Source: an uncultured Candidatus Saccharibacteria bacterium
Lineage (GTDB): Bacteria; Patescibacteriota; Minisyncoccia; Phycocordibacterales; UBA2100
DNA: 64,000 bases
Assembly (NCBI GenBank): GCA_964512835.1
Contig: CAZELA010000003.1
Location: 15,516-79,515 of the forward strand
Reading direction: 5' to 3'
Numbering within the stretch: the first letter of the stretch is position 1; each line of letters starts with the position of its first letter. Below the pieces are notes generated by a model. That model was given only the letters and a program-made list of their open reading frames with translations. It ran no database searches and had not been told where the DNA came from. Positions 3,333 through 58,663 of the stretch are shown here, piece after piece. The translations under genes were made by a program, and so were the position numbers.

Positions 3333-4121
3333 TTAAACGACCGAATAGCGGGACCATCGCTTCAGACCGCTCTTTGTGACCTTGCCATCCGCGACCAGGG
3401 TCAGGAGCTCACGCTGGATCATCTTTTCGCTGTATTCGGGCAAATTCGAGCAAATGTCCTTAATACCCATGGAGCCGCTGGATCGAAGAATTTCCAATAT
3501 GCTTTGAGTCCGCACGCTCATTTGTCCGTTATGTGTGACAGTCTTCACCGCCGAAGCAGCGACCTCCCGTGTATCCGTTGCCTCCCCCGCAACACGAACG
3601 TCTTTTATGTCCTTTACTGCATAGGTCGCAGCGCGAGCGGGCAATGTTCCGACATCCAATAGCTCATCCTTTGATATAACGACACTTTCTGAAAAGTTTG
3701 TTCGCTGCGATACATGCATAAAATTGCCAAGCTCATCGAGCGCTTCAACGATGGCGCTCACATTTTGGGTAGAAGCAAATCCGGATATCGCCAGCATCCG
3801 CACCAGTGATATGAGGTGGCGGATCGAAGATACAACAGACACAACTCCACCGGAGTTCGACGAACGCATATCATCTCGGACCGAAAGCACTGACGACAGC
3901 ATCTGCATGGATTCCCTCCGAACCAGCCCGCGCAACGGCTCATCCTGATCAACGTGGTTGGTCAACAAATGGACTGCTGCCGCGATTCGCTCAGCACGAC
4001 GATAGGCTCTATCGGCCGCTCGATTATCACCAAAAGGATTCAAACGGACATTCTGAGAGTCGAAGAATTTTCCGAGATTTTCCGTCTTTTGTATGTCCTT
4101 ATTGTCGTCCATTTTATGCAT
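3333..4121 (-). CDS. Hypothetical protein with a C-terminal winged-helix-like segment
   Basis: 262-aa ORF. The C-terminus 'SILEILRSSGSMGIKDICSNLPEYSEKMIQRELLTLVADGKVTKSGLKRW' looks like an HTH/wHTH domain. I recognise no family for the N-terminal part. Confidence 0.5.
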   Translation of the reverse strand: MHKMDDNKDIQKTENLGKFFDSQNVRLNPFGDNRAADRAYRRAERIAAAVHLLTNHVDQDEPLRGLVRRESMQMLSSVLSVRDDMRSSNSGGVVSVVSSIRHLISLVRMLAISGFASTQNVSAIVEALDELGNFMHVSQRTNFSESVVISKDELLDVGTLPARAATYAVKDIKDVRVAGEATDTREVAASAVKTVTHNGQMSVRTQSILEILRSSGSMGIKDICSNLPEYSEKMIQRELLTLVADGKVTKSGLKRWSRYSVV

Positions 4122-31767: not shown

Positions 31768-32694
31768 TTACTGCGACCCCTCGAACTGCTTGGAGACCCC
31801 GCGACGAGCCCAGGCCCGGAGCGGCGCATCGAGGGCGACATTGAAGATGTCCTCGATGAACTTGCCGAACAGGTAGTTGATCGCGCGGAACGGCCAGTTG
31901 AAGACCCAGGCGACGTAGAGCGTAGTCACGTCGACATGCTCCTGGATGCTCGTGCCGATGCCGGCGTAGTACGTCTCGTGCTTGCGGACGAACTCCGCCC
32001 ACGGGGCGGCGAGTGCCTGGAGACGATAGTTCTTGAGATCGTCGTCGGACTTCGGCAAGGCGTCAGCCTCGGCACGCGCCGCGGCATCGAGCTTGGTCCA
32101 CACGTTGTCGTAGAGCTCGGACCGGCCGTACTTCTTCTTGTCACGCACCGACCTGAGCCAGTCGACGCGGGCATTGTTCCGGCGAACGACGCGCTCCTTG
32201 GCGAGCGCCACGGTCTTCGACTGCGCCGAAAACACGCCGACGATCAGACACGCGATGATGATCGCGCCGAACGCAGCGGCCTTGGCCCAGAATGAGACCA
32301 TGCCGAAGGCTTCGAGCCAGCGGAAGAAGCCGAGGGTGTACAGCATCGCACCGACAAAGGCGCAGATGCCGACGAGGTACGCGGCGACCTGCCAGATGGT
32401 CTCGCGGGTCCTGCCGGTGCGCTCGTCGTCTTCGACGAAGCATTTGCCCAGGCTGACGGCCACGAAGATGCTCGTCACGACGAGCGCGATGACTTCGATA
32501 GCGAACCAGAACCCGGTGGCCGCGAAGACCTTATCGGGACTCGGCGACAACGCGAAGCATGCGACCAGCACGATCGCGAGCCACAGAAATCCTTCCCTCA
32601 CGATCGAGATCGCCGAAACGACCACGAGCATCAAGAGAAAGATCGGAAGCGGAATCCACGCGAGCGGCGCGAGGACAAATTCGAACACCCACAT
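31768..32694 (-). CDS. Hypothetical 6-TM membrane protein with a soluble C-terminal domain; markedly GC-rich
   Basis: 308-aa ORF with ~65% GC codon usage (GCG/GGC/CGC-rich) against ~56% in flanking nusG and rplK. It carries its own terminator. No family recognised. Confidence 0.6.
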   Translation of the reverse strand: MWVFEFVLAPLAWIPLPIFLLMLVVVSAISIVREGFLWLAIVLVACFALSPSPDKVFAATGFWFAIEVIALVVTSIFVAVSLGKCFVEDDERTGRTRETIWQVAAYLVGICAFVGAMLYTLGFFRWLEAFGMVSFWAKAAAFGAIIIACLIVGVFSAQSKTVALAKERVVRRNNARVDWLRSVRDKKKYGRSELYDNVWTKLDAAARAEADALPKSDDDLKNYRLQALAAPWAEFVRKHETYYAGIGTSIQEHVDVTTLYVAWVFNWPFRAINYLFGKFIEDIFNVALDAPLRAWARRGVSKQFEGSQ

Positions 32695-32878: not shown

Positions 32879-33424
32879 TTATACGCGCTGTACCTGATCC
32901 GCCTCGAGCTCCACCGGAGTCTCTCGACCGAACATCGGGACGAGCACCTTCACCTTTCCGCGCTCTTCGTCGATCTCCCCCACCTTTCCTTCGAGGTCCT
33001 TGAACGGGCCGTCGATAATGACGACTGCGTCACCCTCACCGAGGTCGATCGCGTGTCGGACGACATCGCCGTCTGTTCGCTTGAGGATCTTTTCGACTTC
33101 TGACGGTTCGAGCGGAACTGCCTGGTTGGCGGTGCCGACAAAGCCGGTAACCTGCGGGGTATTTCGCACGACGCTCCAGGCATCGTCCGTGGCCACCATG
33201 TCCACGAGGACATAGCCCGGGAAAATCTTTTCCTTGGTCTCCGTGCGGCGACCGTTCTTGATCTTGATTTTCTTTTCGGTCGGAACAACCACATTAAAGA
33301 TGCGGTCACCCATGCCGAAAGATTCGACGCGCTGTCGGAGGTTTCGCGCAACCGCGTCCTCGTAACCGGAGTACGTGTGTACCGCGTACCACTGTCGCTC
33401 CGTTCCGTATGTCTGTTTTGCCAT
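32879..33424 (-). CDS. nusG: Transcription termination/antitermination factor NusG
   Basis: NGN domain 'WYAVHTYSGYE' and C-terminal KOW motif. Confidence 0.95.
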   Translation of the reverse strand: MAKQTYGTERQWYAVHTYSGYEDAVARNLRQRVESFGMGDRIFNVVVPTEKKIKIKNGRRTETKEKIFPGYVLVDMVATDDAWSVVRNTPQVTGFVGTANQAVPLEPSEVEKILKRTDGDVVRHAIDLGEGDAVVIIDGPFKDLEGKVGEIDEERGKVKVLVPMFGRETPVELEADQVQRV

Positions 33425-42923: not shown

Positions 42924-42979
42924 AGTCGTCCGCAAAAATAGAATTTGCAGACGCTGCGCGTCTTTAATTATTTTTGGGC
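42924..42979. repeat. 56-bp direct repeat, copy 1 (contains AGACGC-tgc-GCGTCT hairpin plus T-rich tract)
   Basis: Near-identical to 43117..43172 over the first ~50 nt ('agtcgtccgcaaaaatagaatttgcagacgctgcgcgtctttaattatttttggg'); the two copies diverge at the final ~6 positions ('...gggcagcgc' vs '...gggcgactat'). Confidence 0.85.
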
Positions 42980-43116: not shown

Positions 43117-43172
43117 AGTCGTCCGCAAAAATAGAATTTGCAGACGCTGCGCGTCTTTAATTATTTTTGGGC
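43117..43172. repeat. 56-bp direct repeat, copy 2, abutting/overlapping the 3' end of tRNA-His
   Basis: As above. It is also flanked by inverted 11-mers cccgatagtcg / cgactatcggg, the latter being the tRNA-His acceptor/T-stem. Confidence 0.85.
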
Positions 43173-43294: not shown

Positions 43295-44395
43295 CTAGCG
43301 CGCTTCCTCTGTCAGCAGCACCCCTCCCTGTGACCGCACGACCGTAAATCGGATGCGACCGACAATCTGGCCGTGCTCCGTCAACACATTCACACGCCAT
43401 GAGCCGGGCTCGGGGTCATACTTTTCGGAGTACCCGCGGAATCCCCCATCCCGCCCTCCGTGGATAGTGAACCGCACATCAGAACGAGTCTCCCATACAT
43501 TCGTCGCATCGTTAAAGTATTGCCACTGATGGCGCAACAATGTCGAGAGACCGGACGGCGCGAACACGGCCGCAAACACATACACCTTCTCACCCTGAGC
43601 AAGGTGTACTGTGGCAGGTGTGCTGAGGTATCGTACCGGCCAGGTTTTTCGCTCACCCTCCAACGTGTATGTTCCTTCCGTGCGGGAAACCGCGTGGTAT
43701 ACCCCTCCCTCCTTTAACGCGAGCGGAAGCGGCGGAATCAAATTGGTGAAATACAACAGGTTAAACACGATGACGAGCGTGCCGAGCGAACGACGCAGTG
43801 TCGGGCGCGCACCCTGCACACGCTCAGGCACCAGTGCCTGCATGAGACCGAGGATCAAAACGATGATCAGCACACTGAGCACCCCCGAAAAAAGAAACAT
43901 ATACGGACCGATCACTTTGAACACGAGGGGCAAGAAAAAAATCAGAAACGAATAGAGCGCCGTAAAGTAGATTGATATTTGGAACGGCAGCTTTTGGTAT
44001 AGCGAACGAAAACGCTCGTTTCCGATTAATAGAAAAGCAAGAACAAGTACGAAGACCCACGACAGCGCAATACCTGCACTGCGGCTGTACAGACTCAGAT
44101 AGCCGGAGAAGAGCGCGCCGAAGAACAGCTGAATCACGACGGGTAAAAACGGTGCCACCCACAGCAGCAGACGATTTTGGGCCCTGCCGGATTCGATGTA
44201 GTTAATCGCGACAATCGCCACGAGCGCGAACACCAGGTACGAAAGCAATAAAATATTGCCGAAGATCACATCGACCCGATTGAGAAAGACGTAGTTATCG
44301 AGCAAGAATCCGACCACAAGGGCGACCGGAGACAGGTAGCGTTCGTACCAATGAATGAGTTCTTCGGTGCTCTTCGGCAGGTATTTGCGGATCAT
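43295..44395 (-). CDS. Hypothetical polytopic membrane protein (~8 TM) with a C-terminal extracytoplasmic beta-rich domain
   Basis: Start set at MIRKYLPK. The C-terminal ~130 aa are soluble ('...RVNVLTEHGQIVGRIRFTVV'). No family recognised. Confidence 0.55.
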   Translation of the reverse strand: MIRKYLPKSTEELIHWYERYLSPVALVVGFLLDNYVFLNRVDVIFGNILLLSYLVFALVAIVAINYIESGRAQNRLLLWVAPFLPVVIQLFFGALFSGYLSLYSRSAGIALSWVFVLVLAFLLIGNERFRSLYQKLPFQISIYFTALYSFLIFFLPLVFKVIGPYMFLFSGVLSVLIIVLILGLMQALVPERVQGARPTLRRSLGTLVIVFNLLYFTNLIPPLPLALKEGGVYHAVSRTEGTYTLEGERKTWPVRYLSTPATVHLAQGEKVYVFAAVFAPSGLSTLLRHQWQYFNDATNVWETRSDVRFTIHGGRDGGFRGYSEKYDPEPGSWRVNVLTEHGQIVGRIRFTVVRSQGGVLLTEEAR

Positions 44396-44420
44396 GTGTA
44401 CCGAGATGATAGCAAACGCA

Positions 44421-45008
44421 TCAACGAGTCGGCGCGTAGCCGTCGGGGTCGAACGATGCAGGATCAAGTCCGGTGAGCGGGTTGTATCCGCAGGCATACG
44501 TTAGACAGTCACGGAAGTACACGCCGTTTTTGTCCCTGGCGTACGAACCGGACGGCGTGACCTCGAGCGTTTCCGTATCGGCACCGTGCGGCAAGTACGT
44601 GAGTTTCGGAGAACGCGTAAGTGCGGTGAGCTTCATATCGGGCCACGTAGGACCGGCGGGAAGTTCGGTGCGGATAAGTCCGGGCGGCGGCACTCCGTCG
44701 TAGGTGATGACTGTGGTTTCTCCGCAGTCGGATTCACCGCACTCCGTGTACACACCCATACCCGCGGGGACGGTCATATCCGCATAGCGAATCCATTTCG
44801 GTGCAGCCTGTGCAACCGCTTGTATAGACGTCGAAAAACGTTCTGCCGGTTTCCGGGGAGCACTTATACGTCGTTCGTTCCGAACGATACCGAACACTCC
44901 TGCCGCAAACAGAAGGATGCCGACTGCAACCACAGCGAACACATAGTTCGGCAACGTATGCAGAGGCGAAGGAGAAGACGGCTCCCCGGCGGGGTCGAGC
45001 GGATTCAT
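44421..45008 (-). CDS. Hypothetical membrane-anchored protein (195 aa)
   Basis: One N-terminal TM (YVFAVVAVGILLFAAGVFGIV) and a Cys-containing extracytoplasmic domain. Confidence 0.5.
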   Translation of the reverse strand: MNPLDPAGEPSSPSPLHTLPNYVFAVVAVGILLFAAGVFGIVRNERRISAPRKPAERFSTSIQAVAQAAPKWIRYADMTVPAGMGVYTECGESDCGETTVITYDGVPPPGLIRTELPAGPTWPDMKLTALTRSPKLTYLPHGADTETLEVTPSGSYARDKNGVYFRDCLTYACGYNPLTGLDPASFDPDGYAPTR

Positions 45009-45075
45009 ACAAGAATGATAGCAAGGGAAAGCCTGTACTCGCGATTTTTTGCGGCTCTGCTATGATGCACGCGTC

Positions 45076-45160
45076 GCGCAGGTGGCGAAATTGGTAGACG
45101 TACTACCTTGAGGTGGTAGCGCCCGTTAAGGGCATGGGAGTTCGAGTCTCCCCCTGCGCA
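45076..45160 (+). tRNA. tRNA-Leu (anticodon GAG)
   Basis: Acceptor GCGCAGG/CCTGCGC; anticodon stem CTACC/GGTAG; loop TTGAGGT; long variable arm; T-arm GGGAG-TTCGAGT-CTCCC. Confidence 0.88.
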
Positions 45161-45204
45161 CACATAACAAAAAACTGGGGCATGCCCCAGTTTTTTGTTA
45201 TGTG
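45161..45204 (+). terminator. Long perfect hairpin immediately after tRNA-Leu (cacataacaaaaaactgggg-cat-gccccagttttttgttatgtg)
   Basis: ~20-bp stem with a T-run in the 3' arm. Confidence 0.7.
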
Positions 45205-45217
45205 GCAGCAGAGGGAG

Positions 45218-45320
45218 ACGAGAAAGCGAGGACTGGGGACCCGCGAACACGCGGGGATGTCCGAGCAGGGCCGAGTGGAGAAAAGTTCTGACGAGAACTT
45301 TTCGAGCGCTTGGCCGAGTC
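45218..45320. repeat. Copy 1 of a ~104-nt structured repeat element (candidate ncRNA or MITE-like element)
   Basis: ~88% identical to 48024..48127. Internal hairpins CCCGCG-aaca-CGCGGG and GAAAAGTTC-tgacga-GAACTTTTC. A second 'cgagagcttgaccgagtc' half-site follows at ~45378. Confidence 0.7.
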
Positions 45321-45458
45321 TCCTGAGCGACGGCGAGCCGAGAGTTGTGGGTCACATTAGACGACGGCGCAAAATCGAGAGCTTGACCGAGTCGCCCCTT
45401 GTGCAATCGAAGGACGCAGCGGCGCGTCGCCGCTGCGAGCGCAGGGTATTATCCCTCT

Positions 45459-46466
45459 ATGCGCCGACTACCGTTCGCACTCGCACTGTGCGCAACGACA
45501 CTCTTTCTATTTTTTACATTTCAGACTGATCCGGTACCGCGCGCGCCCGCACGAGAGCTATCACGCTCCGAGTACGATATAGCCCGAGACACATACCTGA
45601 CAATTCAAAAGACCGCGGGGTCGCGCACTGCACTCGACACCCTCCGTTCAGATATAAACAAAAACGACCCCCTTGCACGCTCATGCCACTCGATCGCCCA
45701 CGAAATAGGACAGCGCGCATTTATCCGCGACCCGGACTTCGGCAGAGCAATGGCAGTACAGAGTGATGTCTGTAACTCCGGGTACATGCACGGCCTCATA
45801 GAGATGTACTTCGTGGAACACGGCAATGCGACATCAACCATGCAGGCCGCATGCGCCGCCTATTCGGGCGGCGACTACCTGAGCTGGGAGTGTTACCACG
45901 GAGTCGGTCACGGACTCATGTTCGCCTCGAGTAACGATCTGCCCCATGCAGTCGTTCAGTGTGACGCCTACAACAACGAGTTCGCGGCGACCGCCTGCCG
46001 CAATGGTGCCTTTATGGAAAACTTCAATACTGATCCGACCGCACATCCTACCGAGTATGTCAGTAGCACCGACCTTTTTTACCCATGCAGCATGTTTGAT
46101 CAACGCGTAGCCGGTGACTGTTACCTCTACGCACCCGTACGCTACCTGAGCGTCCACGAAAATGACTACACAGGCGCACTCACCTGGTGCGGGTCAGCAC
46201 CCGGGAGGTTCAAGGACTTGTGCGTGCGCGGCGTCGGGACTGAAACCATGAAGCGAAACATTTCCGATCCGTCGTTCACGGAAAACGTCTGCTCGGGCGG
46301 AGATTTGTACGAACGATGGGCGTGCATCAGGGGTATGGCGGGCTTATACCTGAATCACGCCGGGTCTATGACTGCGGCGCGAGCGATGTGCAACGCATTA
46401 CAGCTTGTCGACCAACCTGCGTGCTACTACGAGCTCGATCAAGACGCTCCTATGTTCGACCATTAA
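45459..46466 (+). CDS. Hypothetical secreted Cys/His-rich protein
   Basis: Start set at MRRLPFALALCATTLFLFF (signal peptide). Recurrent C..(A/Y)H(E/G)(I/V)G motifs ('CHSIAHEIG', 'CYHGVGHG') suggest metal binding. No family recognised. Confidence 0.65.
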   Translation: MRRLPFALALCATTLFLFFTFQTDPVPRAPARELSRSEYDIARDTYLTIQKTAGSRTALDTLRSDINKNDPLARSCHSIAHEIGQRAFIRDPDFGRAMAVQSDVCNSGYMHGLIEMYFVEHGNATSTMQAACAAYSGGDYLSWECYHGVGHGLMFASSNDLPHAVVQCDAYNNEFAATACRNGAFMENFNTDPTAHPTEYVSSTDLFYPCSMFDQRVAGDCYLYAPVRYLSVHENDYTGALTWCGSAPGRFKDLCVRGVGTETMKRNISDPSFTENVCSGGDLYERWACIRGMAGLYLNHAGSMTAARAMCNALQLVDQPACYYELDQDAPMFDH

Positions 46467-46496
46467 AAAACACCCCATTCGGGGTGTTTTTTATTT
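46465..46496. terminator. Bidirectional terminator AAAAAACACCCC-attc-GGGGTGTTTTTT between convergent genes
   Basis: Read from the sequence. Confidence 0.75.
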
Positions 46497-46507
46497 TGAG
46501 TTTGAAT

Positions 46508-46963
46508 TTATGCCTGCTCTGCGGCTGCGCTCTCTTCTGCGGTCGGAGCTGCTGCTTCGATTGGTGTCTGGTCCTCTTCGATACCCGTAACAACCGGAGC
46601 CGACGACTTGTTTACCAACACAGTTCGGCGGAGTACGCGGCGAGCTTCGCGCGCAACCTTTTCGCGGATGAAGTAGAGCTTTGCGCGGCGCATGGTAGCG
46701 CGCTTTACGATCTCGATCTTGTCGATCATCGGCGAGTACAACGGGAAAATCTTCTCGACTCCCACACCGCTTGATACGCGACGAACAGTGAACGTACCGC
46801 CGGCCTCTGTGCCGTGCTTGCGCGCAAGTACCAAACCTTCAAAGGTCTGAATGCGGGTCTTACCCTTTTCTTCGATCTTCTGGTGAACACGCACCGTATC
46901 CCCCGATCGGAGATCGAGTTCTTTGCGCGCCTTCACGTCTACCGGTGAAATTACGAATGCCAT
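46508..46963 (-). CDS. rplS: 50S ribosomal protein L19 with a C-terminal extension
   Basis: '[72 protein letters not shown]' L19 core. Start set at MAFVISP. Confidence 0.88.
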
Positions 46964-47086
46964 AACGTCGCGGCACTGTAACATGACACCCCGCGGAGGG
47001 CAAATGCACCCTATCGCGCGCTCCTGTTGCACTCCTCCCCCTCCTCTATTAAGGTGCCCGCGGGACCAAACAGAAGGAGGGCACCC

Positions 47087-47644
47087 ATGACTGAGACTCT
47101 ATTGAAGATCGGCGTCGCCGGTAACCGCGACACATTGAACCGCATCGAATCCTGGCTGACCTCGGCAATGCAGCAGTACCTGCCGCCGAGGCGTTTCACC
47201 ATCTCGAATCACGATCCGTTCCCGCCGGGACAGAGCAACACCGAAATGTCGACGCTGGTGCGTCCACCCAAGGGCCTCGGCGCGATCCAGTCGCTACATC
47301 ATCGCTCGGGCACGATTGCGCGCGTGATGCTCGAGCGCAATCCCGACATCGACGTGATGATCCGGATCGACTCCGGCGGCCTGCAGATGGACATCCCGAA
47401 GCCGAGCAGCGTCTACCACGACAGCCAGTACGGCGTTGTTGCAACGCTCGCGACGCGACTGAAGGGCGCCGGCGCGATCATGCTGTACTCCAGCTTGAGC
47501 TCGCAGGGCTATCTGGGCGGAAGCGGCGTCGGCCATCGCCAGGAGACGGCAATGTCGGAGGTCGCGATGCAGGGAGTGCTCCCCCGCTGGTGGATGGAAC
47601 TCAGTCGCGGCGTCCACCGGGCGAGCACCGCGCTCGCTGCCTGA
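47087..47644 (+). CDS. Hypothetical protein; GC-rich, probably horizontally acquired
   Basis: ATG preceded by a GAAGGAGG RBS. ~66% GC with CTG/GGC/CGC-dominated codon usage, unlike neighbours. No family recognised. Long antisense ORFs on the minus strand here are a GC artefact. Confidence 0.55.
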
Positions 47645-47791
47645 ACTGCCTGATTGCACACGTGTTGAGCGGGTCGCCATGCGACCCGCTCTTTCAATAA
47701 TTGGTTTTATTGGGGAAATACGCTAAGGTGATGCAGAAGTAATTCACGGGTCACAAGCTCCGAAGACGACACTCTTCGCGGCGCGGTACCC

Positions 47792-47821
47792 CCGATTGCT
47801 TTCGTATCGTAGTTCATGGGC
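47792..47821. repeat. Duplicate of the tRNA-Val upstream region plus its first ~12 nt (ttcgtatcgtagttcatgggcgattagctc); second copy at 47874..47903
   Basis: Exact 30-mer repeat read from the sequence. Confidence 0.7.
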
Positions 47822-47891
47822 GATTAGCTCCAGAGGACGATGCCGTCGTTCGCGGAGCGGTGCCTTGAAAAGAGTTCGTATCGTAGTTCAT

Positions 47892-47964
47892 GGGCGATTA
47901 GCTCAGTTGGTAGAGCAACGCTTTTACACAGCGAAGGTCACAGGTTCGAGTCCTGTATCGCCCA
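47892..47964 (+). tRNA. tRNA-Val (anticodon TAC)
   Basis: Acceptor GGGCGAT/ATCGCCC; D-arm GCTC-AGTTGGTA-GAGC; anticodon loop TTTACAC; T-arm ACAGG-TTCGAGT-CCTGT. Confidence 0.85.
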
Positions 47965-48012
47965 CACAAATACAAAGGACCGACAGATTCTGTCGGTTCT
48001 TTGTATTTGGTG
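47965..48012 (+). terminator. Long hairpin immediately after tRNA-Val (caaatacaaaggaccgaca-gattc-tgtcggttctttgtatttg)
   Basis: Read from the sequence. Analogous in position and form to the hairpin after tRNA-Leu. Confidence 0.65.
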
Positions 48013-48023
48013 TTGCGCATCAG

Positions 48024-48127
48024 GACGAGAAAGCGAAGGCCGGGTACCCGCGAGCACGCGGGGATGCCTGAGCAGGGCCGAGCGGAGAAACGTTTTGACG
48101 AAAACGTTTCGAGCGCTTGGCCGAGTC
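48024..48127. repeat. Copy 2 of the ~104-nt structured repeat element, followed by a 30-nt duplicate of the tRNA-Val 3' end
   Basis: Aligns to 45218..45320. Hairpin GAAACGTTTT-gacg-AAAACGTTTC preserves the copy-1 stem through compensatory changes. 'cgagtcctgtatcgcccacacaaatacaaa' appears at both 47948..47975 and 48121..48150. Confidence 0.7.
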
Positions 48128-48182
48128 CTGTATCGCCCACACAAATACAAAACCCGCAGCAGTGCGGGTTTTGTGCATTTTG

Positions 48183-48254
48183 TGTCCCCGGTTGGAATCG
48201 AACCAACATAACCGGCTTAGAAGTCCGGTGTTCTATCCATTGAACTACAGGGAC
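48183..48254 (-). tRNA. tRNA-Arg (anticodon TCT)
   Basis: Reverse complement folds as acceptor GTCCCTG/CGGGGAC (one G-U); D-arm GTTC-AATGGATA-GAAC; anticodon loop CTTCTAA (A31-G39 mismatch); T-arm GTTGG-TTCGATT-CCAAC. Confidence 0.75.
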
Positions 48255-48292
48255 GTGCGCTGAATCGTAGCCGCGTACCCTACTCGGGTCAA

Positions 48293-48622
48293 TCAGTTAC
48301 TTTTCGACGGATCACTTACGGCAGGCGGAGTTGCGCGGCCGAGCTCGTAGTTTTCTCTGCGCTCATAGAATTGCGTTAATGTACCCTCGAGCTGTGTCCT
48401 ATCGATTGCGGGAGCAGCCTGTGATCCCCCTCCCGAAGTGGACGTCGATATGGTCTTCATGACCGCAGAGAATTCCCACACACCGAACAGAATGATCCCC
48501 ATCGCGGCGACTATTGCCGTCAGCAGTACGACACGCCAATACACTTCTGCGATCGGTCGCAGGTTTTCCGGCTCGTGACGAGCCTCGTAGAGCTCTTTGA
48601 AGGAATCGTGTGCGTCCGTCAT
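48293..48622 (-). CDS. Hypothetical single-TM protein co-transcribed with pilMNO (possible PilP-like accessory)
   Basis: Its ATG overlaps the upstream gene's stop (ATGA). TM 'VVLLTAIVAAMGIILFGVWEF'. Functional call is inference from context. Confidence 0.5.
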   Translation of the reverse strand: MTDAHDSFKELYEARHEPENLRPIAEVYWRVVLLTAIVAAMGIILFGVWEFSAVMKTISTSTSGGGSQAAPAIDRTQLEGTLTQFYERRENYELGRATPPAVSDPSKSN

Positions 48623-49170
48623 ATAGAAACTTGAATGAGCGTGAGTACCTTGATGCGCGCCGTAATGTGCCACGCGGGCTGCTTCGGGTCACTCGTATTG
48701 TTGCGCACGATTTCGATCTGATCCACTGACGACAAAAGAGGAAGTCGCTCGTAGAGTTGGGCAGCGTGCATAACCTGCGCCATCGATCCGTCTCCCTGCA
48801 CACTGAACATAACGGCGCGCAGTGTGTCACCCGATTTACCAAGCGGGAGCGTACCCGCGACCGACGCGTCACTTACCTTTGCCTCGATACCCGCACTTCT
48901 TCCCGCTGCGTCGATTGTGTCGATAACGGTCACCACATCAGCAGCAGCAAGCAGTGCCAGTTCCTCGCGTTTTTCTTTTGTCACCTCCGCAAGCGCCTGC
49001 ACCTTCTGGTTCATCGCCGACTGGTTCGCTTTAGTCATCGCTAGCTGCGTATCATTTGAACGCTGAAGCGCCGTTGCGCGGATCATCTGCGCCGCATACC
49101 CCACACCCGCGCACGATGCAATCGCGAAAACGAGCAATATCCACGACATGAGTTTGATGCGCTCCGACAT
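48619..49170 (-). CDS. pilO: Type IV pilus assembly protein PilO-like
   Basis: N-terminal TM plus coiled coil and periplasmic domain; position after pilM-pilN. Weak homology call. Confidence 0.55.
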   Translation of the reverse strand: MSERIKLMSWILLVFAIASCAGVGYAAQMIRATALQRSNDTQLAMTKANQSAMNQKVQALAEVTKEKREELALLAAADVVTVIDTIDAAGRSAGIEAKVSDASVAGTLPLGKSGDTLRAVMFSVQGDGSMAQVMHAAQLYERLPLLSSVDQIEIVRNNTSDPKQPAWHITARIKVLTLIQVSI

Positions 49171-49171
49171 A

Positions 49172-49681
49172 TCAAAAGTTTCCTTGCAGTGTTATGGAGA
49201 ACTGTCCGCTCGAACCGACGAGCGCCGCCACCGGTACCGACACCGTGGTAAATGTCCCGTCACCCTCGAGCGCCGTGCGGTACGCCGTCAGCTGTTCACG
49301 AGTCGCTTTCCCCCCGAGCTGAATCGATTTCGATGCACCGATATAACGGATATGATCGACCGTTACACCCTTGGGGCGCAGCTCAAGCGCCTTGATGACC
49401 GCTCTCGACGGCGACGACGTTGCGCTCACGACCGGCGCAACTGCAGTTAAGAGCGCTTGCGATCGAACCATGCTTTTCAGACTGTCTGCAGCGCCGGAGC
49501 CCTGGGCATTCACCTCTTCCGCGGAAAGCGTATTAACCTCGAGCGCCGCGAAGCTCGGTATGAGCGCAATCAGCGCGAACACCGACAACGCAATAAGCGT
49601 AAGCGACAAGACAATGATGAATCGTGCGCGATGCATTGCCCAGAGCGATCGTTGCGCAGGTACCGGTAGAACGTTCGACAT
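49172..49681 (-). CDS. pilN: Type IV pilus assembly protein PilN-like
   Basis: Single N-terminal TM (FIIVLSLTLIALSVFALIALIP) and periplasmic domain, directly after pilM. Confidence 0.55.
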   Translation of the reverse strand: MSNVLPVPAQRSLWAMHRARFIIVLSLTLIALSVFALIALIPSFAALEVNTLSAEEVNAQGSGAADSLKSMVRSQALLTAVAPVVSATSSPSRAVIKALELRPKGVTVDHIRYIGASKSIQLGGKATREQLTAYRTALEGDGTFTTVSVPVAALVGSSGQFSITLQGNF

Positions 49682-49684
49682 AAT

Positions 49685-50743
49685 TTATAGACCACGCAGC
49701 GCGAGTCCGACCGCGGTGGCAAATTGCAGCGACACATGTTTATCGATCGGCGGTACATAGTCTTCAAACGTTGTGACATGCCGCCACACATTACCCCGCA
49801 ACGCCTTTGCCTGTACGCGTCCCGAAATGTAGTCAGAAAGTCCGCGAAGATTTGCATTACCGCCGACCAGAATGACACGGCCGACCGGAGTCATGCGCTC
49901 CCCGTGCTCATTGCGCCTCGTATCCCAGTAGTGGTAGTGACGCGCAACCTCGTCGGCAAGCGCGGCGGCCGCTCCGCTCACGGCGTCCAGTTCCGGAGAC
50001 TTGGTTCCGTTACGCGTAGCAAGCAGGCCCTCGTCGTTCTTGAACCGTTCGGCGTCTTCGTGCGTCATATTGAGCTTTCCGACGAGCATCCGATCGATCA
50101 GGTCACCGCCCACCTCCACGGTCGACGTAAAGATCGGCACGCCCCGCTTCACGACGGCAAAACCCGTGCGTGCACGACCGAAATCCACCAATAACGTTAT
50201 CGGCTCTTCAGCGTCCGACGATGAAACGGCGCGCGCGATTGAACGCGCCTCAACCTCCAGCGAAAGCAGTGTAATACCGGCGGCAGAAAATGCGTCGACG
50301 TACGCCTGTGCCACGTCTTTCGGGAATACGACAACGCTTATTTCTTCGCTGCCGCCGTCGTCCCGCGAAAGCGTGTTGTAGTCGTACACAGCTGCGCTGG
50401 GTGGAATAGGAACACGGCCTTCAAATTCGAATTCGATCATCCCGAGCACCTGGGCACGCGGCGTGCCGCTCGGGACCTGCATGCTGAATACGTAAGCCGC
50501 CTCTTCGGGTAGTGCCGCATGAGCACAGTAGATACCCTTCAACTCTTTGCGTACGCCCTTGAGCACGTCCGCGAGCGCCGGCACATCATGAATAACCCCG
50601 TTCATTACAATGCCTGAACGGAGCGGAATATCGCCGTACGTCTGTACACGCAGACCGTTCTCTGCTGAAACGAGCGTCAGCCACTTGATCGACGAGTCCG
50701 AAATATCGACACCGGCGGCACGCGGCATCAGGAGACGCGGCAT
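49685..50743 (-). CDS. pilM: Type IV pilus assembly ATPase-like protein PilM (actin/FtsA fold)
   Basis: 'AGVDISDSSIKWLTL' start of the actin-like fold and overall PilM conservation. Start set at MPRLLMPR. Confidence 0.8.
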   Translation of the reverse strand: MPRLLMPRAAGVDISDSSIKWLTLVSAENGLRVQTYGDIPLRSGIVMNGVIHDVPALADVLKGVRKELKGIYCAHAALPEEAAYVFSMQVPSGTPRAQVLGMIEFEFEGRVPIPPSAAVYDYNTLSRDDGGSEEISVVVFPKDVAQAYVDAFSAAGITLLSLEVEARSIARAVSSSDAEEPITLLVDFGRARTGFAVVKRGVPIFTSTVEVGGDLIDRMLVGKLNMTHEDAERFKNDEGLLATRNGTKSPELDAVSGAAAALADEVARHYHYWDTRRNEHGERMTPVGRVILVGGNANLRGLSDYISGRVQAKALRGNVWRHVTTFEDYVPPIDKHVSLQFATAVGLALRGL

Positions 50744-50839
50744 CGGAAACCACCGCGTGAGGCGTCGCGAGAATGTTTCTTTCGCAGCAGAAAGAGCGGT
50801 GGGATCAGAAGACCACATCGCTCAATTATATCAGCATTG

Positions 50840-51235
50840 CTACTTCAATTTCGTTCCCTGTGGAACTTCTCGCTCCGGTTGTATGAGTGCGACACCCTTT
50901 TCGTCTGATGCAGCAATCAGCATGCCCTGACTCTCAACACCGCGAAGCATACGCGGCGCCAGATTTACGATGTACGGCAACTGACGACCGACCAGATCTT
51001 CAGGCTGTTTCCATTCTGCAATCCCGGAAACGATGGTGCGTGTGCCCATCGCTCCGAAATCGATCGTGCACTTGAGAAGCTTGTCGGCGTTCTCCACCTT
51101 TTCAACGGCCACGACGGTGCCGATACGTATATCAAGCTTGGCAAAATCATCGTACGAGATCTCAGCCTTCTTCTCGGGAACCGGAGTCTGTACTTCGACG
51201 GGGGCGATATTATCTGCGGGGGTTTGTTCTGACAT
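50840..51235 (-). CDS. Stand-alone tRNA-binding protein (Trbp111/CsaA/EMAP-II-like OB fold)
   Basis: 'FAKLDIRIGTVVAVEKVENADKLLKCTIDFG...RTIVSGIAEW...IVNLAPRMLRGVESQGMLIAAS' matches the MetRS C-terminal/Trbp111 domain. Confidence 0.82.
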   Translation of the reverse strand: MSEQTPADNIAPVEVQTPVPEKKAEISYDDFAKLDIRIGTVVAVEKVENADKLLKCTIDFGAMGTRTIVSGIAEWKQPEDLVGRQLPYIVNLAPRMLRGVESQGMLIAASDEKGVALIQPEREVPQGTKLK

Positions 51236-51242
51236 AGTCTGC

Positions 51243-51632
51243 CTAGTCTACACTTCCGGTTTTGATATCCAAATAGCGCTGCAGAATGATCGCGGCCGCA
51301 GACGCGTCGTCATGACGGTCATCCGGCGCGTAGCGGTTGGCTTCGATGGAGCTCCCCGCTTCCCACGAGGACGCAATCGGCACGTCGAGCGTCTTTTTCA
51401 GATCCTCGACGAAATCTCGCACCTTCAACGTGATGGGGTTCGGTATCCCGCCGTAGCTTTGCGTATCACCTACCACAATGAACCCGATCTTTTCGTCTTC
51501 GACGATCTTTTGGATCACACCGATGACTCCCCGCATGTTTGCGATGGTCTCACGCGGAAACGCGATCGTGCCCCCCTCGTCCGAGACAGCGAGTCCGATG
51601 CGCTTACCGCCGTAATCGATGCCCAAAAACTT
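51243..51632 (-). CDS. ruvX: Holliday junction resolvase-like RuvX/YqgF
   Basis: 'MKFLGIDYGGKRIGLAVSD' canonical N-terminus. Confidence 0.9.
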   Translation of the reverse strand, partial: KFLGIDYGGKRIGLAVSDEGGTIAFPRETIANMRGVIGVIQKIVEDEKIGFIVVGDTQSYGGIPNPITLKVRDFVEDLKKTLDVPIASSWEAGSSIEANRYAPDDRHDDASAAAIILQRYLDIKTGSVD

Positions 51633-51636
51633 CATG

Positions 51637-52278
51637 TCAGTAATCGTACGCTGTTCCGGTCTCGATTGCATCAAACGCGATGTTGTGGGATTTAAGGATG
51701 CCGCCGACCATTGCCGGAATAAACGCGGCGAATTGCGGGTGCAGGATCATATCGTGCACCGGGAACGCACGCTGCGGTTTGAGCATGATTGCGTAATCGA
51801 TTGCCTGGGACACCTTCATCCATGGACCGGCAACCGGAAGCGCCACGATTTCCACCGGCTCTCCCGGCTCAATAAACGCATCCCCCGGATACCAGAGGCG
51901 ACCCGCGATAAGAAATCCCGTATTTTGGATGCGCGGAATGGACGAGTGGATCTCTTCGTGCACGCCGGATACGCCGGTAAACGCAACGCCGCCGTGCTCG
52001 TGTGTCCCGTCCGTCATGGTGATGTGTTCGATGTGTTCGCGTGTGAGCAACGCAGACACCCCTTCGTTGCAGATAATCACAACCCTCGGGTTTGTAGCCA
52101 CAAGATGTTTTAACGATTCAAGGTGATAGTGGTCAGCGTGTTCGTGCGTGTAGAGAATAACGTCGATACCCGTGAGGGAGGAGTGGATGTTTGCAGTGAA
52201 TGCACCGGGGTCGGTCAGGATGCGGATCCCCCGCTCTTCAATCAGCAGACAACAATGTCCGTATTTCGTTATTTTCAT
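51637..52278 (-). CDS. Metallo-beta-lactamase-fold hydrolase
   Basis: 'YTHEHADH' (HxHxDH) motif. Confidence 0.85.
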   Translation of the reverse strand: MKITKYGHCCLLIEERGIRILTDPGAFTANIHSSLTGIDVILYTHEHADHYHLESLKHLVATNPRVVIICNEGVSALLTREHIEHITMTDGTHEHGGVAFTGVSGVHEEIHSSIPRIQNTGFLIAGRLWYPGDAFIEPGEPVEIVALPVAGPWMKVSQAIDYAIMLKPQRAFPVHDMILHPQFAAFIPAMVGGILKSHNIAFDAIETGTAYDY

Positions 52279-52293
52279 GCGCGTAGTATAGCC

Positions 52294-52707
52294 CTATCGT
52301 TCCTGAAGTTTCGATGTTTTGTAGATTTCGGGCTGAAAGGGTTTCAATCGGACGACACGGGTGTGCAATCCTGCACGGTCGAGCTCGGCCTGCAATTCGT
52401 TTACATAAAAGCTGTGCTGATCGTAGCCGAGCCCTATCACCTCGGGATCAGCCAAAACAATATGTCCGATGAAACCCTCACGATCTCCGAGAACCACCTC
52501 ATCCACAAGATTGCAGGCCTCGACCGTCTTGAGCCGTTCAAGCTCCGTATGTTTCGGCTTCATGCCTTTTATGCGTTCGGTCGATTGATCTCTCGCTATC
52601 GAAACAATGAGCTGCGGATCCTCTACGAGCGCGCGGGCCTGACGGAACATATCGAGATGTCCCTCGTGGAGCATGTCGAACGTACCGAATACCATTACCC
52701 GCCTCAT
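52294..52707 (-). CDS. Cytidylyltransferase-fold nucleotidyltransferase, RibL-like (putative FMN adenylyltransferase, archaeal type)
   Basis: '[22 protein letters not shown]...[18 protein letters not shown]' matches the (H/T)xGH nucleotidyltransferase core and resembles archaeal RibL/TagD. Start set at MRRVMVFG; it overlaps the upstream gene's stop by 4 nt. Confidence 0.7.
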
Positions 52708-53657
52708 GATGCGACTTCCTCCTGATTCTCCCGACTGAGCATATAGAGCGCAAACAGAAGCAGTGCGGTGCCTGCCCACTGCCCCACAAACAGGCCAAAG
52801 TAGGTGCCCGGAGCGTTATTCCCTGCGATGAAATATGCGTTCACAAATACAGCCGCGAGCGGAAACCCGAGCTCTGCGAGCGTTGCGATGGATGCTTTCG
52901 TGAACTGCAGTCCGTAGTAGTAGATAGAGAGCGAAAAGACTCCGGAAACCATTGCCACGATTGCGATAAAGAGCCAGTCCGTGGGAGTAATCGAAGCGAA
53001 CGGAGGCAACTGGTCTTGCGCCGCGGAAAGCATCATCAGAAACACAAAAGCAATACCGAAACGCAGCGCGGTGAGGGTTTGGAATGAACTTGTGCGCAGT
53101 GCGTACTTGCCCAGTACCGTTGATGCTCCCCACAAGAGCGCCGCAGCGAGCGCGAACAACACCCCGAGCATGTTCGGGTTGAACACTTCCCCTTCGTACA
53201 TTTGCGGGCGTATGTCCGGAAAGCTGATGAGGTACGCTCCCGCGATCGCAACGAGCGCCCATATCCAGAAATATTTATGCATGCGCTCTTTCAGAAAGAG
53301 AGCGGCGAGTGATATTGCGATCAACGGTTGCACCTTTTGCAGCAGGATCGCTACCGAGGGATTCACGTACGAGAACGACTGTGTGAATGCTATCGAGGCG
53401 AGCGCCGAACCACCCACTGCGATCACGATGATTGCCGCCCACTCGCGCTTGGTGAATGTCGCGAGCTCCCGCCAATTGAAGAACAGTACCGGGATTACGA
53501 ACAAAAGGTTTACCGCATGTTCGGCGAGCACGATAAAACTCGACGACAGATCCTTTGTAAGGTACGTGCGGAACGGCGCGTCGGTCGCCCACAGCATCGC
53601 CGCCGCGAAGACGAGCAAGGGGCCGAAAAATGCGAGGGATCGGGTTACCTGCTTCAT
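52704..53657 (-). CDS. DMT-superfamily (EamA) transporter; possible RibN-like riboflavin importer
   Basis: 10-TM EamA architecture, translationally coupled (4-nt overlaps) between the riboflavin kinase and RibL-like genes. The substrate is inferred from context only. Confidence 0.8.
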
Positions 53658-56193: not shown

Positions 56194-57607
56194 ATGAACG
56201 CCCATGTAGGACCACTGACTTCGATCACAACGGCCGGCATCATCACGCTGACCGATAGCTACAAGCCGACGCACTGGCTGCAGACACCGTCGAGAACGAC
56301 GATGATCTATTCGTTCCTGGAAAGCCGCGGCGGCAAGTTCAATGCCGTTACGTTCTTCGGTCTGCAGTACTACCTGATGAAGTACTTCGCGGGAGTGGTG
56401 GTGAACGAACAGTTCATCAAGAAGGCCCGTCGACGTTTCAGGGCTCACTTCGGCAACGACGCGCTGTTCAACGAAGCCGGATGGCTACGACTGATCGAGA
56501 AACACGGCGGCAAGCTGCCGATCCGCATCAAGGCGGCCCGAAGGAACAACTGTTCCGACCGGCAACGTACTGATGACAATCGAGAACACCGACGAGGAAT
56601 TCGCCTGGATCACGAACTACCTCGAGACCTTGCTCTCGATGGTGTGGTACCCGTCGACCGTGGCGACGCAGAGCCGTGAAATGCGTCGGGTACTGCTCAA
56701 GTACCTGGTCATGACCGGCGATCCGTCGCTCATCGACTTCAAACTGCACGACTTCGGTTTCCGCGGTTCGACCTCGGTCGAAAGTGCGGGAATCGGCGGC
56801 GCTGCGCATCTGGTGAACTTTTTGGGCACCGATACGCTCGCCGCACTTGATGTCGCCGAAGACTACTACGACGAAGAAAGCGCCGGATTCTCAATTCCGG
56901 CAGCCGAACACTCCACGATTACCTCGTGGGGTCGCGAGAACGAGGCCGAAGCATTCGAAAACATGCTCACGCAGTTCCCGAGCGGACTCGTTGCCGTGGT
57001 GTCCGACAGCTACAACATCTACGAAGCGTGCAAGAAGATCTGGGGCGAACAGCTTCGGGAGAAAGTGCTCGCTCGTGATGGCGTGCTTGTCGTTCGACCG
57101 GATTCCGGCTACCCGCCGGACACGGTCGTCGTCGTGCTGAACATCCTGGGCGAGAAGTTCGGATACACCATGAACGACAAGGGCTACAAAGTCCTGAATC
57201 CGAAGGTTCGCGTCATCCAGGGTGACGGCATCGACTACGAGATGCTCGACAAGGTGCTGGTCGCGATGAAGATCGCCGGATGGTCGGCGGACAATGTCGC
57301 GTTCGGCTCGGGCGGCGGTCTCCTGCAGAAGGTCAACCGTGACACGCAGAAGTTCGCGATCAAGTGCTCGTATATGGAAGTCGCCGGCGAAGGTCGCGAC
57401 GTGATGAAGGACCCGATCACCGACCCGGGCAAGCGCTCGAAGGCGGGCCGACTCGCGCTCGTGAAGATCGATGGCGAGTTCAAGACCGTCCGCGAGGAAG
57501 AGGCAGCCCGCCTCGGACTCAAGGATGAGCTCGAGACCGTGTTCGAGAACGGCGAGATCCTGGTCAAGCACAGCTTCGCGGACATTCGTGCCCGCGCAGC
57601 AATCTGA
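56194..57607 (+). pseudogene. nadV: Nicotinamide phosphoribosyltransferase (NadV/NAMPT) interrupted by a -1 frameshift near 56535-56545
   Basis: Frame 1 (56194..~56540) encodes the NAMPT N-terminus ('...LPIRIKAA'). Frame 2 from ~56541 continues '(R)PEGTTVPTGNVLMTIENTDEEFAWITNYLETLLSMVWYP...', matching '[23 protein letters not shown]...' of known NAMPT. One missing C in the 'gcggcccg' run explains it. It is either a true pseudogene or an assembly error. Confidence 0.85.
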
Positions 57608-58512: not shown

Positions 58513-58522
58513 CAATGATTCA

Positions 58523-58546
58523 AAGAAACGCCTTCGGGCGTTTTTT
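58523..58546 (+). terminator. Terminator after tRNA-Ser (AAACGCC-ttcg-GGCGTTT plus TTTTTT)
   Basis: Read from the sequence. Confidence 0.75.
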
Positions 58547-58663
58547 TGATTCATCATTTCGAGTAAGGGAAAAGATTCGAAGGCGAGCGGCGGAGGCTCC
58601 ATCAGCAGATGAAGCGACGCAAGCAGGGACGAACGAGCTCTTGGGCGAATCTCTCTACCCAAA

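Follow-up and report, generated by a model that had tools for sequence, protein, structure and literature searches.

The fold predicted for the protein analysed here is that of the ITPase-like superfamily, whose described members are the YjjX, Ham1-RdgB-ITPA and Maf proteins. YjjX (UPF0244; Pfam NTPase_I-T) is the ITPase/XTPase of E. coli, with structures 1u5w and 1u14 in the PDB and the Vibrio protein VC0702 as 1zno/1zwy; an alignment of its family shows N10, K13, G54, R58, E76 and G78 (E. coli numbering) to be invariant. The Ham1, RdgB and ITPA proteins (e.g., TM0159, 1vp2; S. aureus, 4bnq; human ITPA, 2i5d) are non-canonical purine NTP pyrophosphatases, and the Maf pyrophosphatases are represented by B. 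subtilis 4heb, YceF 4jhc and T. brucei 2amh. Patescibacteria, the group to which the present locus belongs, are generally regarded as dependent on nucleotide salvage; much of their proteome has no assigned function. The second class of known systems that bears on the locus is that of genomic islands targeting tRNA genes, which lie 3' of the tRNA.

Within a window of 64 kb, the whole stretch of DNA that was analysed, a GC-rich ORF lies between rplS and a tRNA-Val gene whose ends are duplicated nearby. We refer to it as gene X. Our preferred reading, to which we give a probability of roughly 0.55, is that X is a genuine gene of a new ITPase-fold family, that its product binds and probably hydrolyses a nucleotide, and that it is an old resident of its clade, kept under selection and written in codons that the host itself prefers.

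A self-contained gene between rplS and tRNA-Val

The longest open frame at this position in the ORF list, 47027..47644, begins with TTG. The true start is the ATG at 47087, since a Shine-Dalgarno (SD) sequence stands ahead of it and all homologues align from there; gene X thus occupies 47087..47644 on the forward strand. Its product of 185 aa is predicted to be cytoplasmic and soluble and ends in ...TALAA, and a search for a paralogue within the 64-kb window returned none. The SD, GAAGGAGG at 47073-47080, places GGAGG 6 nt from the ATG. In a crude scan of 62 window ORFs, AAGGAGG was found upstream of X alone and no SD 4-mer was found before 38 of them, making this the strongest SD in the window and bearing out an earlier description of the site as a textbook ribosome-binding site, stronger than those of most native genes.

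The 41-nt leader that precedes the start codon (47046..47086, forward strand; CTCTATTAAGGTGCCCGCGGGACCAAACAGAAGGAGGGCACCC) is near-invariant in an alignment of four lineages despite saturated synonymous sites. A 7-bp stem is possible between GGTGCCC (47054-60) and GGGCACC (47080-86), and a regulatory hairpin occluding the SD was considered and rejected: the stem is no more stable than those of shuffled sequences (z -0.9) and, being invariant, displays no covariation. The conservation of the leader holds for sequence, not for a structure. Downstream of X, an intrinsic terminator read from the sequence (47667..47695, forward strand) consists of GAGCGGGTCGC-CAT-GCGACCCGCTC followed by TTTC. Its hairpin is kept by compensatory changes and followed by a T run in the aligned loci L005, L006 and L007; a consensus terminator scanner did not list the window copy, in which the T tract is short. 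A terminator of its own implies that X is monocistronic, and with its conserved leader and SD the gene is a self-contained monocistronic unit.

Coding status, distribution and age

A search of 5.8 billion proteins recovered only four clusters related to X, at 100, 73, 65 and 62% identity and all of 184-185 aa. Differences among the orthologs fall mainly at third codon positions (e.g., 37/28/84 across the three positions), ten pairwise Nei-Gojobori comparisons give dN/dS values of 0.14-0.24 and dS values no lower than 1.06, such that synonymous sites are saturated, and 90 residues are invariant among four orthologs. By this pattern of substitution, X is a real protein-coding gene under purifying selection. 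The contrary reading, a spurious ORF that is a chance frame in GC-rich DNA or overlaps a structured RNA, might be suggested by the long antisense ORFs that overlap X and by its failure to match any known domain. Long overlapping antisense ORFs are usual in GC-rich sequence, and the third-position substitutions together with dN/dS near 0.2 in ten comparisons already refute such a reading; the 90 invariant residues, the confident fold prediction described below and the absence of an Rfam match in the region of X argue the same way. We give it next to no credence.

The divergent neighbor of X is rplS (46508..46963, reverse strand), which encodes ribosomal protein L19 (TIGR01024 rplS_bact, E 1.4e-31) and for which some annotations use an in-frame ATG upstream at 46984. 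X diverges from rplS in all five lineages that carry it, at protein identities of 100, 73, 65, 62 and 56%, and at all homologous loci the gene beside X is recorded with PF01245. Five contigs, which come from four or five separate samples (four places shown), repeat the rplS-X junction and encode the same X protein without a difference; three of these contigs have 100% DNA identity to the window and one has 97%. Recurrence in independent samples indicates that the junction is not an assembly chimera.

Presence in relatives, raised in the first-pass annotation as a check on foreign origin, gave a divided answer: five lineages keep X beside rplS, but not all relatives do, and a profile HMM of the X family run over ~4 kb around related rplS genes, with some loci shorter on one side, found it in 0 of 80 species representatives (L008 and 79 others). 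In L008, whose L19/rplS is 93% identical, tRNA-Val stands ~180 nt from rplS with no trace of X, and the site is thus polymorphic for presence and absence, X being absent there and present in five other lineages. A neighbor-joining tree of rplS (~450 nt) places X-less L008 as sister to X-bearing L005, nested inside the X clade, which points to loss; the outgroup in that tree, L009, also has no X, and its tRNA-Val lies only 45 nt from rplS. The simplest history would be a gain of X at the base of the clade followed by loss in L008. Divergences of the two genes are not fully congruent (L006 and L092 differ by a dS of 0.47 for rplS but 3.1 for X), a mismatch that makes some exchange of X between lineages likely.

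The order tRNA-Arg/Val, rplS, tRNA-Leu, tRNA-His is conserved across relatives, and the gap between tRNA-Val and rplS varies from 45 nt to more than 3 kb. In L005 this gap holds two further ORFs of low GC (one 43%), including an HTH_23-like protein. X is therefore an accessory gene of very narrow phylogenetic range in a variable rplS-tRNA-Val slot. Synteny in five lineages combined with saturated synonymous sites means that its acquisition was not recent; X is an old, lineage-specific resident and not a fresh foreign cassette. Under our preferred reading, X would have entered the slot in the ancestor of a single genus-level clade of Kaiserbacteria-like bacteria, in which purifying selection has since kept it, with a later loss in at least one member.

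Instead of a nucleotide enzyme, X could be a factor associated with translation or the ribosome and regulated jointly with rplS from the divergent promoter region that both genes share. Distant X homologues do not lie near ribosomal genes, the close relative L008 lives without X, and fold matches to hibernation factors span only ~80-90 residues and rank far behind the matches to YjjX, Ham1 and Maf. We regard a ribosomal role as highly improbable.

Base composition and codon usage

All statistics of composition and codon usage come from the 64-kb window, not from a whole genome. The GC content of X is 64.0%, slightly below the ~66% given initially, and the ORF is GC-rich as described, the window having a GC content of 0.556 (55.6%). 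GC1, GC2 and GC3 are 0.597, 0.495 and 0.828. The GC3 of 82.8% compares with a mean of 63.5% (SD 0.076) over 62 non-overlapping ORFs of at least 100 aa, placing X ~2.5 SD above the mean and second in rank. Values of this order occur elsewhere in the window, in ORF 31768..32694 (0.87) and in the nicotinate phosphoribosyltransferase gene at 56573..57607 (0.80); the excess is genuine, though not unique. The codons of X are rich in CTG/CTC, GGC and CGC, with GGC used for 14 of 18 Gly and CGC for 8 of 14 Arg, and the reported CTG/GGC/CGC bias is borne out by these counts.

What did not survive is the view that these codons betray a foreign origin. When synonymous codons were resampled with the amino-acid sequence fixed, the likelihood of X against the pooled window was higher than expected (z +2.7, rank 7/62), and it uses the commonest synonym of the window at 59% of its codons, compared with 46% on average. 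The ORFs with atypical codons (z < -3) are others, including the neighboring 355-aa ORF at 45399..46466. X uses the host's own preferred codons more heavily; its pattern is not alien. In all five orthologs the GC3 of X exceeds that of the adjacent rplS, by 0.08-0.22, and distant homologues also have GC3 somewhat above that of their neighboring genes. An excess present in every ortholog despite saturated dS indicates a bias that is maintained and not the residue of a donor.

The high GC3 would then reflect heavier use of host-preferred G/C-ending codons, maintained by an ongoing process that may be codon selection, which fits the strong SD, or a local bias. Given that SD, selection for efficient expression is a reasonable candidate cause. 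A donor that was a related, more GC-rich genome or phage would give the same direction of codon bias, and codons alone leave room for such a source. Contig L094 (GC 62.5%) carries an X-like fragment of GC3 0.83. X is a clean example of a gene for which high GC3 and an adjacent tRNA are insufficient to call horizontal transfer.

Repeats around tRNA-Val

The tRNA-Val(TAC) gene (47892..47965, forward strand) is intact by ARAGORN and scores 71.7 bits against the Rfam tRNA model. It lies 248 nt from X, and both of its ends are duplicated nearby, just as had been observed. Upstream of it stand two tandem ~74-nt units (47745..47891, forward strand), identified by repeat search and direct reading and missed by Tandem Repeats Finder for want of copies. 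The complete 74-nt unit comprises the tRNA-Val upstream region plus the first 13 nt of the tRNA (GGGCGATTAGCTC at 47818-47830), and these 13 nt likewise fall within a 56-nt repeat (47775-47830 and 47849-47904). There are two units in the window, three in L001 and one in L008. On the other side, a 30-nt exact repeat (47947-47976 and 48122-48151) contains the tRNA-Val 3' end; it encloses 145 nt of non-coding DNA, not X. Beyond it follow a bidirectional, terminator-like hairpin (48146..48175) and tRNA-Arg(TCT) (48182..48254, reverse strand; ARAGORN and Rfam).

These duplications had been taken as signs of a horizontally acquired cassette at a tRNA integration hotspot. In its strongest form this model holds that X is a recent foreign cassette integrated at tRNA-Val by a site-specific recombinase, the duplicated tRNA ends being att scars. 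It could call on the GC3 of X, 2.5 SD above the window mean, on the absence of X from L008 and 79 other related species, on the duplicated ends themselves, and on the extra low-GC ORFs, one of them HTH_23-like, that occupy the slot in L005. Set against it are five syntenic lineages with saturated synonymous sites and a codon usage that follows host preference. X is alone between rplS and tRNA-Val, where the ORF list (44000-51000) includes no integrase or recombinase, and no recombinase domain was found in the ORFs neighboring it; moreover, X is located 5' of the tRNA, and the 30-nt direct repeat holds only the 145-nt non-coding element. Elements of the latter kind also occur after tRNA-His, tRNA-Leu and tRNA-Ser and in a genome that has no X. 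The model is largely refuted, and we consider recent integration very unlikely. The first-pass interpretation is supported in part: X is an accessory gene of narrow distribution in a variable slot, but a recent arrival, an integrase and repeats flanking X find no support.

One further feature of the neighborhood concerns strain variation. Over 45130-47904, L001 matches the window at 100% identity; over 48148-53639 its identity is only 92.8%, and its tRNA-Val trailer is a different one. The short-read contigs L002 and L003 both end at 47830, inside the repeat. The step in identity is due either to strain recombination at tRNA-Val or to one assembly joining two strains; in both cases the linkage of rplS and X is unaffected.

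A structured element downstream of tRNA genes

The second set of duplicated tRNA sequence belongs to an element of its own, which we term the tRNA-trailer element (47966..48151, forward strand). After tRNA-Val its parts are, in order, a palindromic hairpin (47977-48000), an antisense copy of the tRNA-Val 3' end, a conserved two-hairpin core, and the tRNA 3' end again in sense orientation (48122-48151, an exact match to 47947-47976). A second copy (45202..45331, forward strand) begins 40 nt after tRNA-Leu(GAG) (45076..45161), with a core 88% identical to that of the tRNA-Val copy. The two copies bracket a 2.8-kb segment that contains the 355-aa ORF, rplS and X.

From an alignment of five copies (four in the window, behind tRNA-Val, -Leu, -His and -Ser, and the one behind tRNA-Val in L008), RNAalifold folds the element as a three-way junction with compensatory changes in 22 of 40 pairs. 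The covariance model built from this alignment, R1, matches 48009-48138 with 136 bits; it detects four copies in the window, and 88 related loci yield 31. Of 33 copies, 29 follow a tRNA gene of the same orientation (Val, Leu, His, Arg or Ser) at a distance of 29-59 nt. The 5' arm is the reverse complement of the 3' end of that upstream tRNA, which the 3' arm repeats in sense orientation. In the alignment fitted to the model, 90.8% of cells are paired; sliding the partners lowers this to ~39%. Compensatory changes affect 39 of the 40 pairs, and the retention of a G-U pair by 21 of 31 sequences points to a function in the tRNA-sense strand.

An Rfam search at E <= 1 gave no match to the element, and a full-text literature search found no description of it. 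Group I introns are known in Patescibacteria tRNAs (PMC13011429); the size and motifs of the trailer misfit both a group I intron and a hammerhead or other small ribozyme, and Rfam matched neither. Identities as a tmRNA, a Y-RNA-like tRNA mimic or a REP/MITE were likewise dropped, given the Rfam and literature results. With its strong covariation support, the trailer may represent a new class of RNA or of mobile element, widespread in these reduced genomes, and it is probably a more novel object than X.

The trailer is present in L008, which has no X, and absent after tRNA-Val in L001, which carries an identical X. The duplicated tRNA ends are thus independent of X, and the claim that they mark its integration fails: they belong to a separate element that occurs without the gene. 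Indirectly, the two may still be connected. Trailers, which follow tRNA genes in many of the sampled Patescibacteria relatives, would form an undescribed structured class: three-way junctions of ~125 nt in which the closing stem repeats the acceptor/T-arm of a tRNA lying ~40 nt upstream. They would act as recombination-prone boundaries which, in place of an integrase, drive gain, loss and exchange of small cargo such as X around tRNA-Arg/Val, rplS, tRNA-Leu and tRNA-His. In this picture X would represent a new family with the ITPase fold, whose role, specific to Patescibacteria, would lie in salvaging nucleotides or ribose. Several observations fit trailers as boundaries: two copies bracket the 2.8-kb segment with X, independent contigs break at trailers or at the 74-nt repeats, the identity of L001 falls from 100% to 92.8% exactly at tRNA-Val, and the orientation of tRNA-Val flips among relatives. 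Taken as a whole, the proposal is speculative and we think it doubtful.

Protein family, predicted fold and putative function

The statement that X has no recognizable domain holds for the Pfam, NCBIfam and PADLOC scans: none of 11 family members matched Pfam, and the other two likewise gave nothing meaningful. An exhaustive profile search of 1.84 billion representatives recovered seven X-family clusters, of 180-193 aa, and all members whose organism can be identified are Patescibacteria. Ten of 11 aligned members end in Ala-Ala. Across this wider family the only invariant residues are L82, L121, R124, Q152, M156, W168 and R174; N13, D95 and H150-R151 are not conserved.

With the 11-sequence alignment, AlphaFold2 returned a model of X with pLDDT 86.8 and pTM 0.83; a model from four sequences was poor (pLDDT 53.7) and was set aside. 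The prediction supports X as the founder of a tiny, unannotated family with the ITPase-like superfamily fold (YjjX / Ham1-RdgB-ITPA / Maf). A PDB sequence-profile search returned nothing beyond marginal matches to the CARF region of Csm6 (E 0.3), and a CARF identity was rejected because neither fold search supports it. When X-family alignments were compared with a YjjX alignment by hhalign, the probability was 0.1% (E 0.5-0.7). The best local alignment, which is not significant, places X residues 73-80 and 93-97 on YjjX 52-59 (RAGARNRV) and 74-78 (AIEAG), pairing 'RSGTIARV...IRIDSG' with 'RAGARNRV...VAIEAG' and covering the YjjX-invariant G54, R58, E76 and G78. In the near clade of X, N13 (placed by eye), G75, R79, D95 and G97 occupy positions corresponding to those of YjjX, and the Lys is missing; the wider family varies at these places. 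The Lys found three residues after the conserved Asn in YjjX and Ham1 is Thr in X.

Two distant homologues, P0010 and P0011, are divergent from an rpiB-rpe-transketolase operon and stand beside GAPDH, a context that fits a link to ribose or nucleotide metabolism. From the predicted fold, X most likely binds a nucleotide and probably hydrolyses it, either as a YjjX-like non-canonical NTP pyrophosphatase or in a related step. A non-catalytic, ligand-binding role is possible as well, in view of the replacement of Lys by Thr and the variability of N13, D95 and H150-R151. On our preferred reading, X would add a small unannotated family, in Patescibacteria, to the nucleotide house-cleaning superfamily of YjjX, Ham1 and Maf, and the fold assignment points to a concrete activity to assay, that of a (d)NTP pyrophosphatase.

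The distribution of the family also brings in mobile elements. X could be a "moron" of phage or conjugative-element origin that has become fixed, with the family travelling on Patescibacteria mobile elements and the copy beside rplS domesticated. The family is extremely patchy, with its seven clusters among 1.84 billion representatives, and X is self-contained, with its own promoter region, SD and terminator. The distant member P0006 (L090) lies near T4SS_pilin/SLT and Phage_CRI genes. A metagenome profile scan yielded one partial locus, the GC-rich contig L094 noted above, on which an X-like fragment that lacks its 5' part (62-73% identity) adjoins genes for Mu Gam (PF07352, E 9e-17) and terminase-like proteins; that fragment is cut by the contig end, and L094 may instead be a phage inserted beside or into X, or a chimeric contig. 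No X homologue turned up in 2.9 million viral contigs, the window has no PHROG-type neighbors, and the setting of P0010 and P0011 is that of a core metabolic operon. We judge an origin as a moron unlikely, though well short of negligible.

Comparison with known systems

Relative to YjjX, X shares the predicted fold at a structural identity of 8%, and no profile method links the two. X lacks the 'TNPAK' lysine of YjjX, the conserved positions are lost in the wider X family, and the conserved C-terminal ...AA tail and 'DPFPPGQ' loop of X are without counterpart in YjjX. X has no HMM match to Ham1, RdgB or ITPA; the spacing of the N-terminal motif differs, and the motifs are lost in distant X members. 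The resemblance to Maf pyrophosphatases likewise lies in the fold, with no similarity of sequence. Finally, X resembles tRNA-targeting islands in its presence or absence next to a tRNA, in its position near direct repeats of a tRNA 3' end, and in a slot with variable cargo. It differs from them in having no recombinase, in lying 5' of the tRNA outside the repeats, and in being an old gene maintained by selection.

A structured element downstream of tRNA genes

A structured element of about 125 nt lies about 40 nt 3' of tRNA genes and is co-oriented with them. Copies follow tRNA-Val (window 47966-48151), tRNA-Leu (45162-45335), tRNA-Ser (58514-58662) and, on the minus strand, tRNA-His (43168 down to 42996); beyond the window, the element occurs at 31 places in the related loci L005-L087. 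Each copy opens with a palindromic hairpin. Then come an antisense copy of the 3' end of the cognate tRNA, a conserved core of two hairpins and, last, the same tRNA 3' end in the sense orientation. Because its arms are the antisense and sense copies, the closing stem resembles the acceptor/T-arm helix of the cognate tRNA. Covarying changes occur in 39 of the 40 pairs; a single G-U pair is conserved. The element has no matching family in Rfam, and a literature search found no description of it. It may encode an RNA, or it may be a mobile element at the DNA level.

At tRNA-His, a 56-nt perfect direct repeat (42924-42979 and 43117-43172; spacing 193 nt) takes in the last 4 nt of the tRNA, the terminator hairpin behind it and the beginning of the trailer element. 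The element appears to have been duplicated or inserted here very recently.

Repeats, strain differences and inversions at tRNA-Val

Upstream of tRNA-Val lie units of about 74 nt, each consisting of the region upstream of the tRNA plus the first 13 nt of the tRNA itself, such that the units break within the D-loop. Their number differs among relatives: two copies in the window (47745-47891), three in L001 (2620-2836; contig CAZWFX010000006, which carries an identical copy of X, the ORF between rplS and tRNA-Val) and one in L008 (about 830-885), a close relative without X in that slot. The ends of short-read contigs fall within this array.

Relative to L001, the window is 100% identical over 45130-47904 and 92.8% identical over 48148-53639, with the switch exactly at tRNA-Val, and the trailer of this tRNA is wholly different between the two. 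The identity switch and the differing trailer indicate either recombination between strains at tRNA-Val or a strain-chimeric assembly. Close relatives also differ in how tRNA-Val is oriented with respect to rplS; in L006 (about 1440-1527), L016, L018 and L028, for example, the orientation is opposite to that in the window. These flips suggest repeated small inversions around the tRNA gene.

Codon usage of other ORFs in the window

The tRNA-Leu gene is flanked on one side by a Cys-rich 355-aa ORF (45399-46466, plus strand) and on the other by a 195-aa ORF (44421-45008, minus strand). Neither has a Pfam match, and neither is present at the corresponding places in L008. Codon usage of the 355-aa ORF is atypical (z -3.2, where positive values of this synonymous-codon likelihood against the pooled window are more host-like), and by this measure it looks more foreign than X. 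The highest GC3 of the window (0.87) belongs to a 307-aa ORF (31768-32694, minus strand) that adjoins nusG (32879-33424) and has no family match in Pfam or NCBIfam. It exaggerates the host codon preference in the same way as X (z +5.5).

Distant members of the X family and a shared C-terminus

Two distant family members, in L088 (4276-4827) and L089 (4757-5338), come from two different genomes; their identities are 23-24% when taken from the family alignment and 25-27% when taken from BLASTP. Both are divergent from an rpiB-rpe-transketolaseN-PCC-transketolaseC operon, with GAPDH adjoining. On the metagenome contig OFQY01003691 (L094; GC 62.5%), an X-like fragment without the first ~17 codons (3767-3892) adjoins a Mu Gam-like gene and terminase-like ORFs. 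Possible readings are that a phage has inserted at the gene or within it, that the copy is carried by a phage, or that the contig is chimeric.

X ends in TALAA (47630-47641), and an Ala-Ala C-terminus is found in 10 of 11 family members in the alignment (X and P0002-P0011). The C-terminus may be a degron; the Ala-Ala end resembles the C-terminal residues of the SsrA/ClpXP degradation tag.
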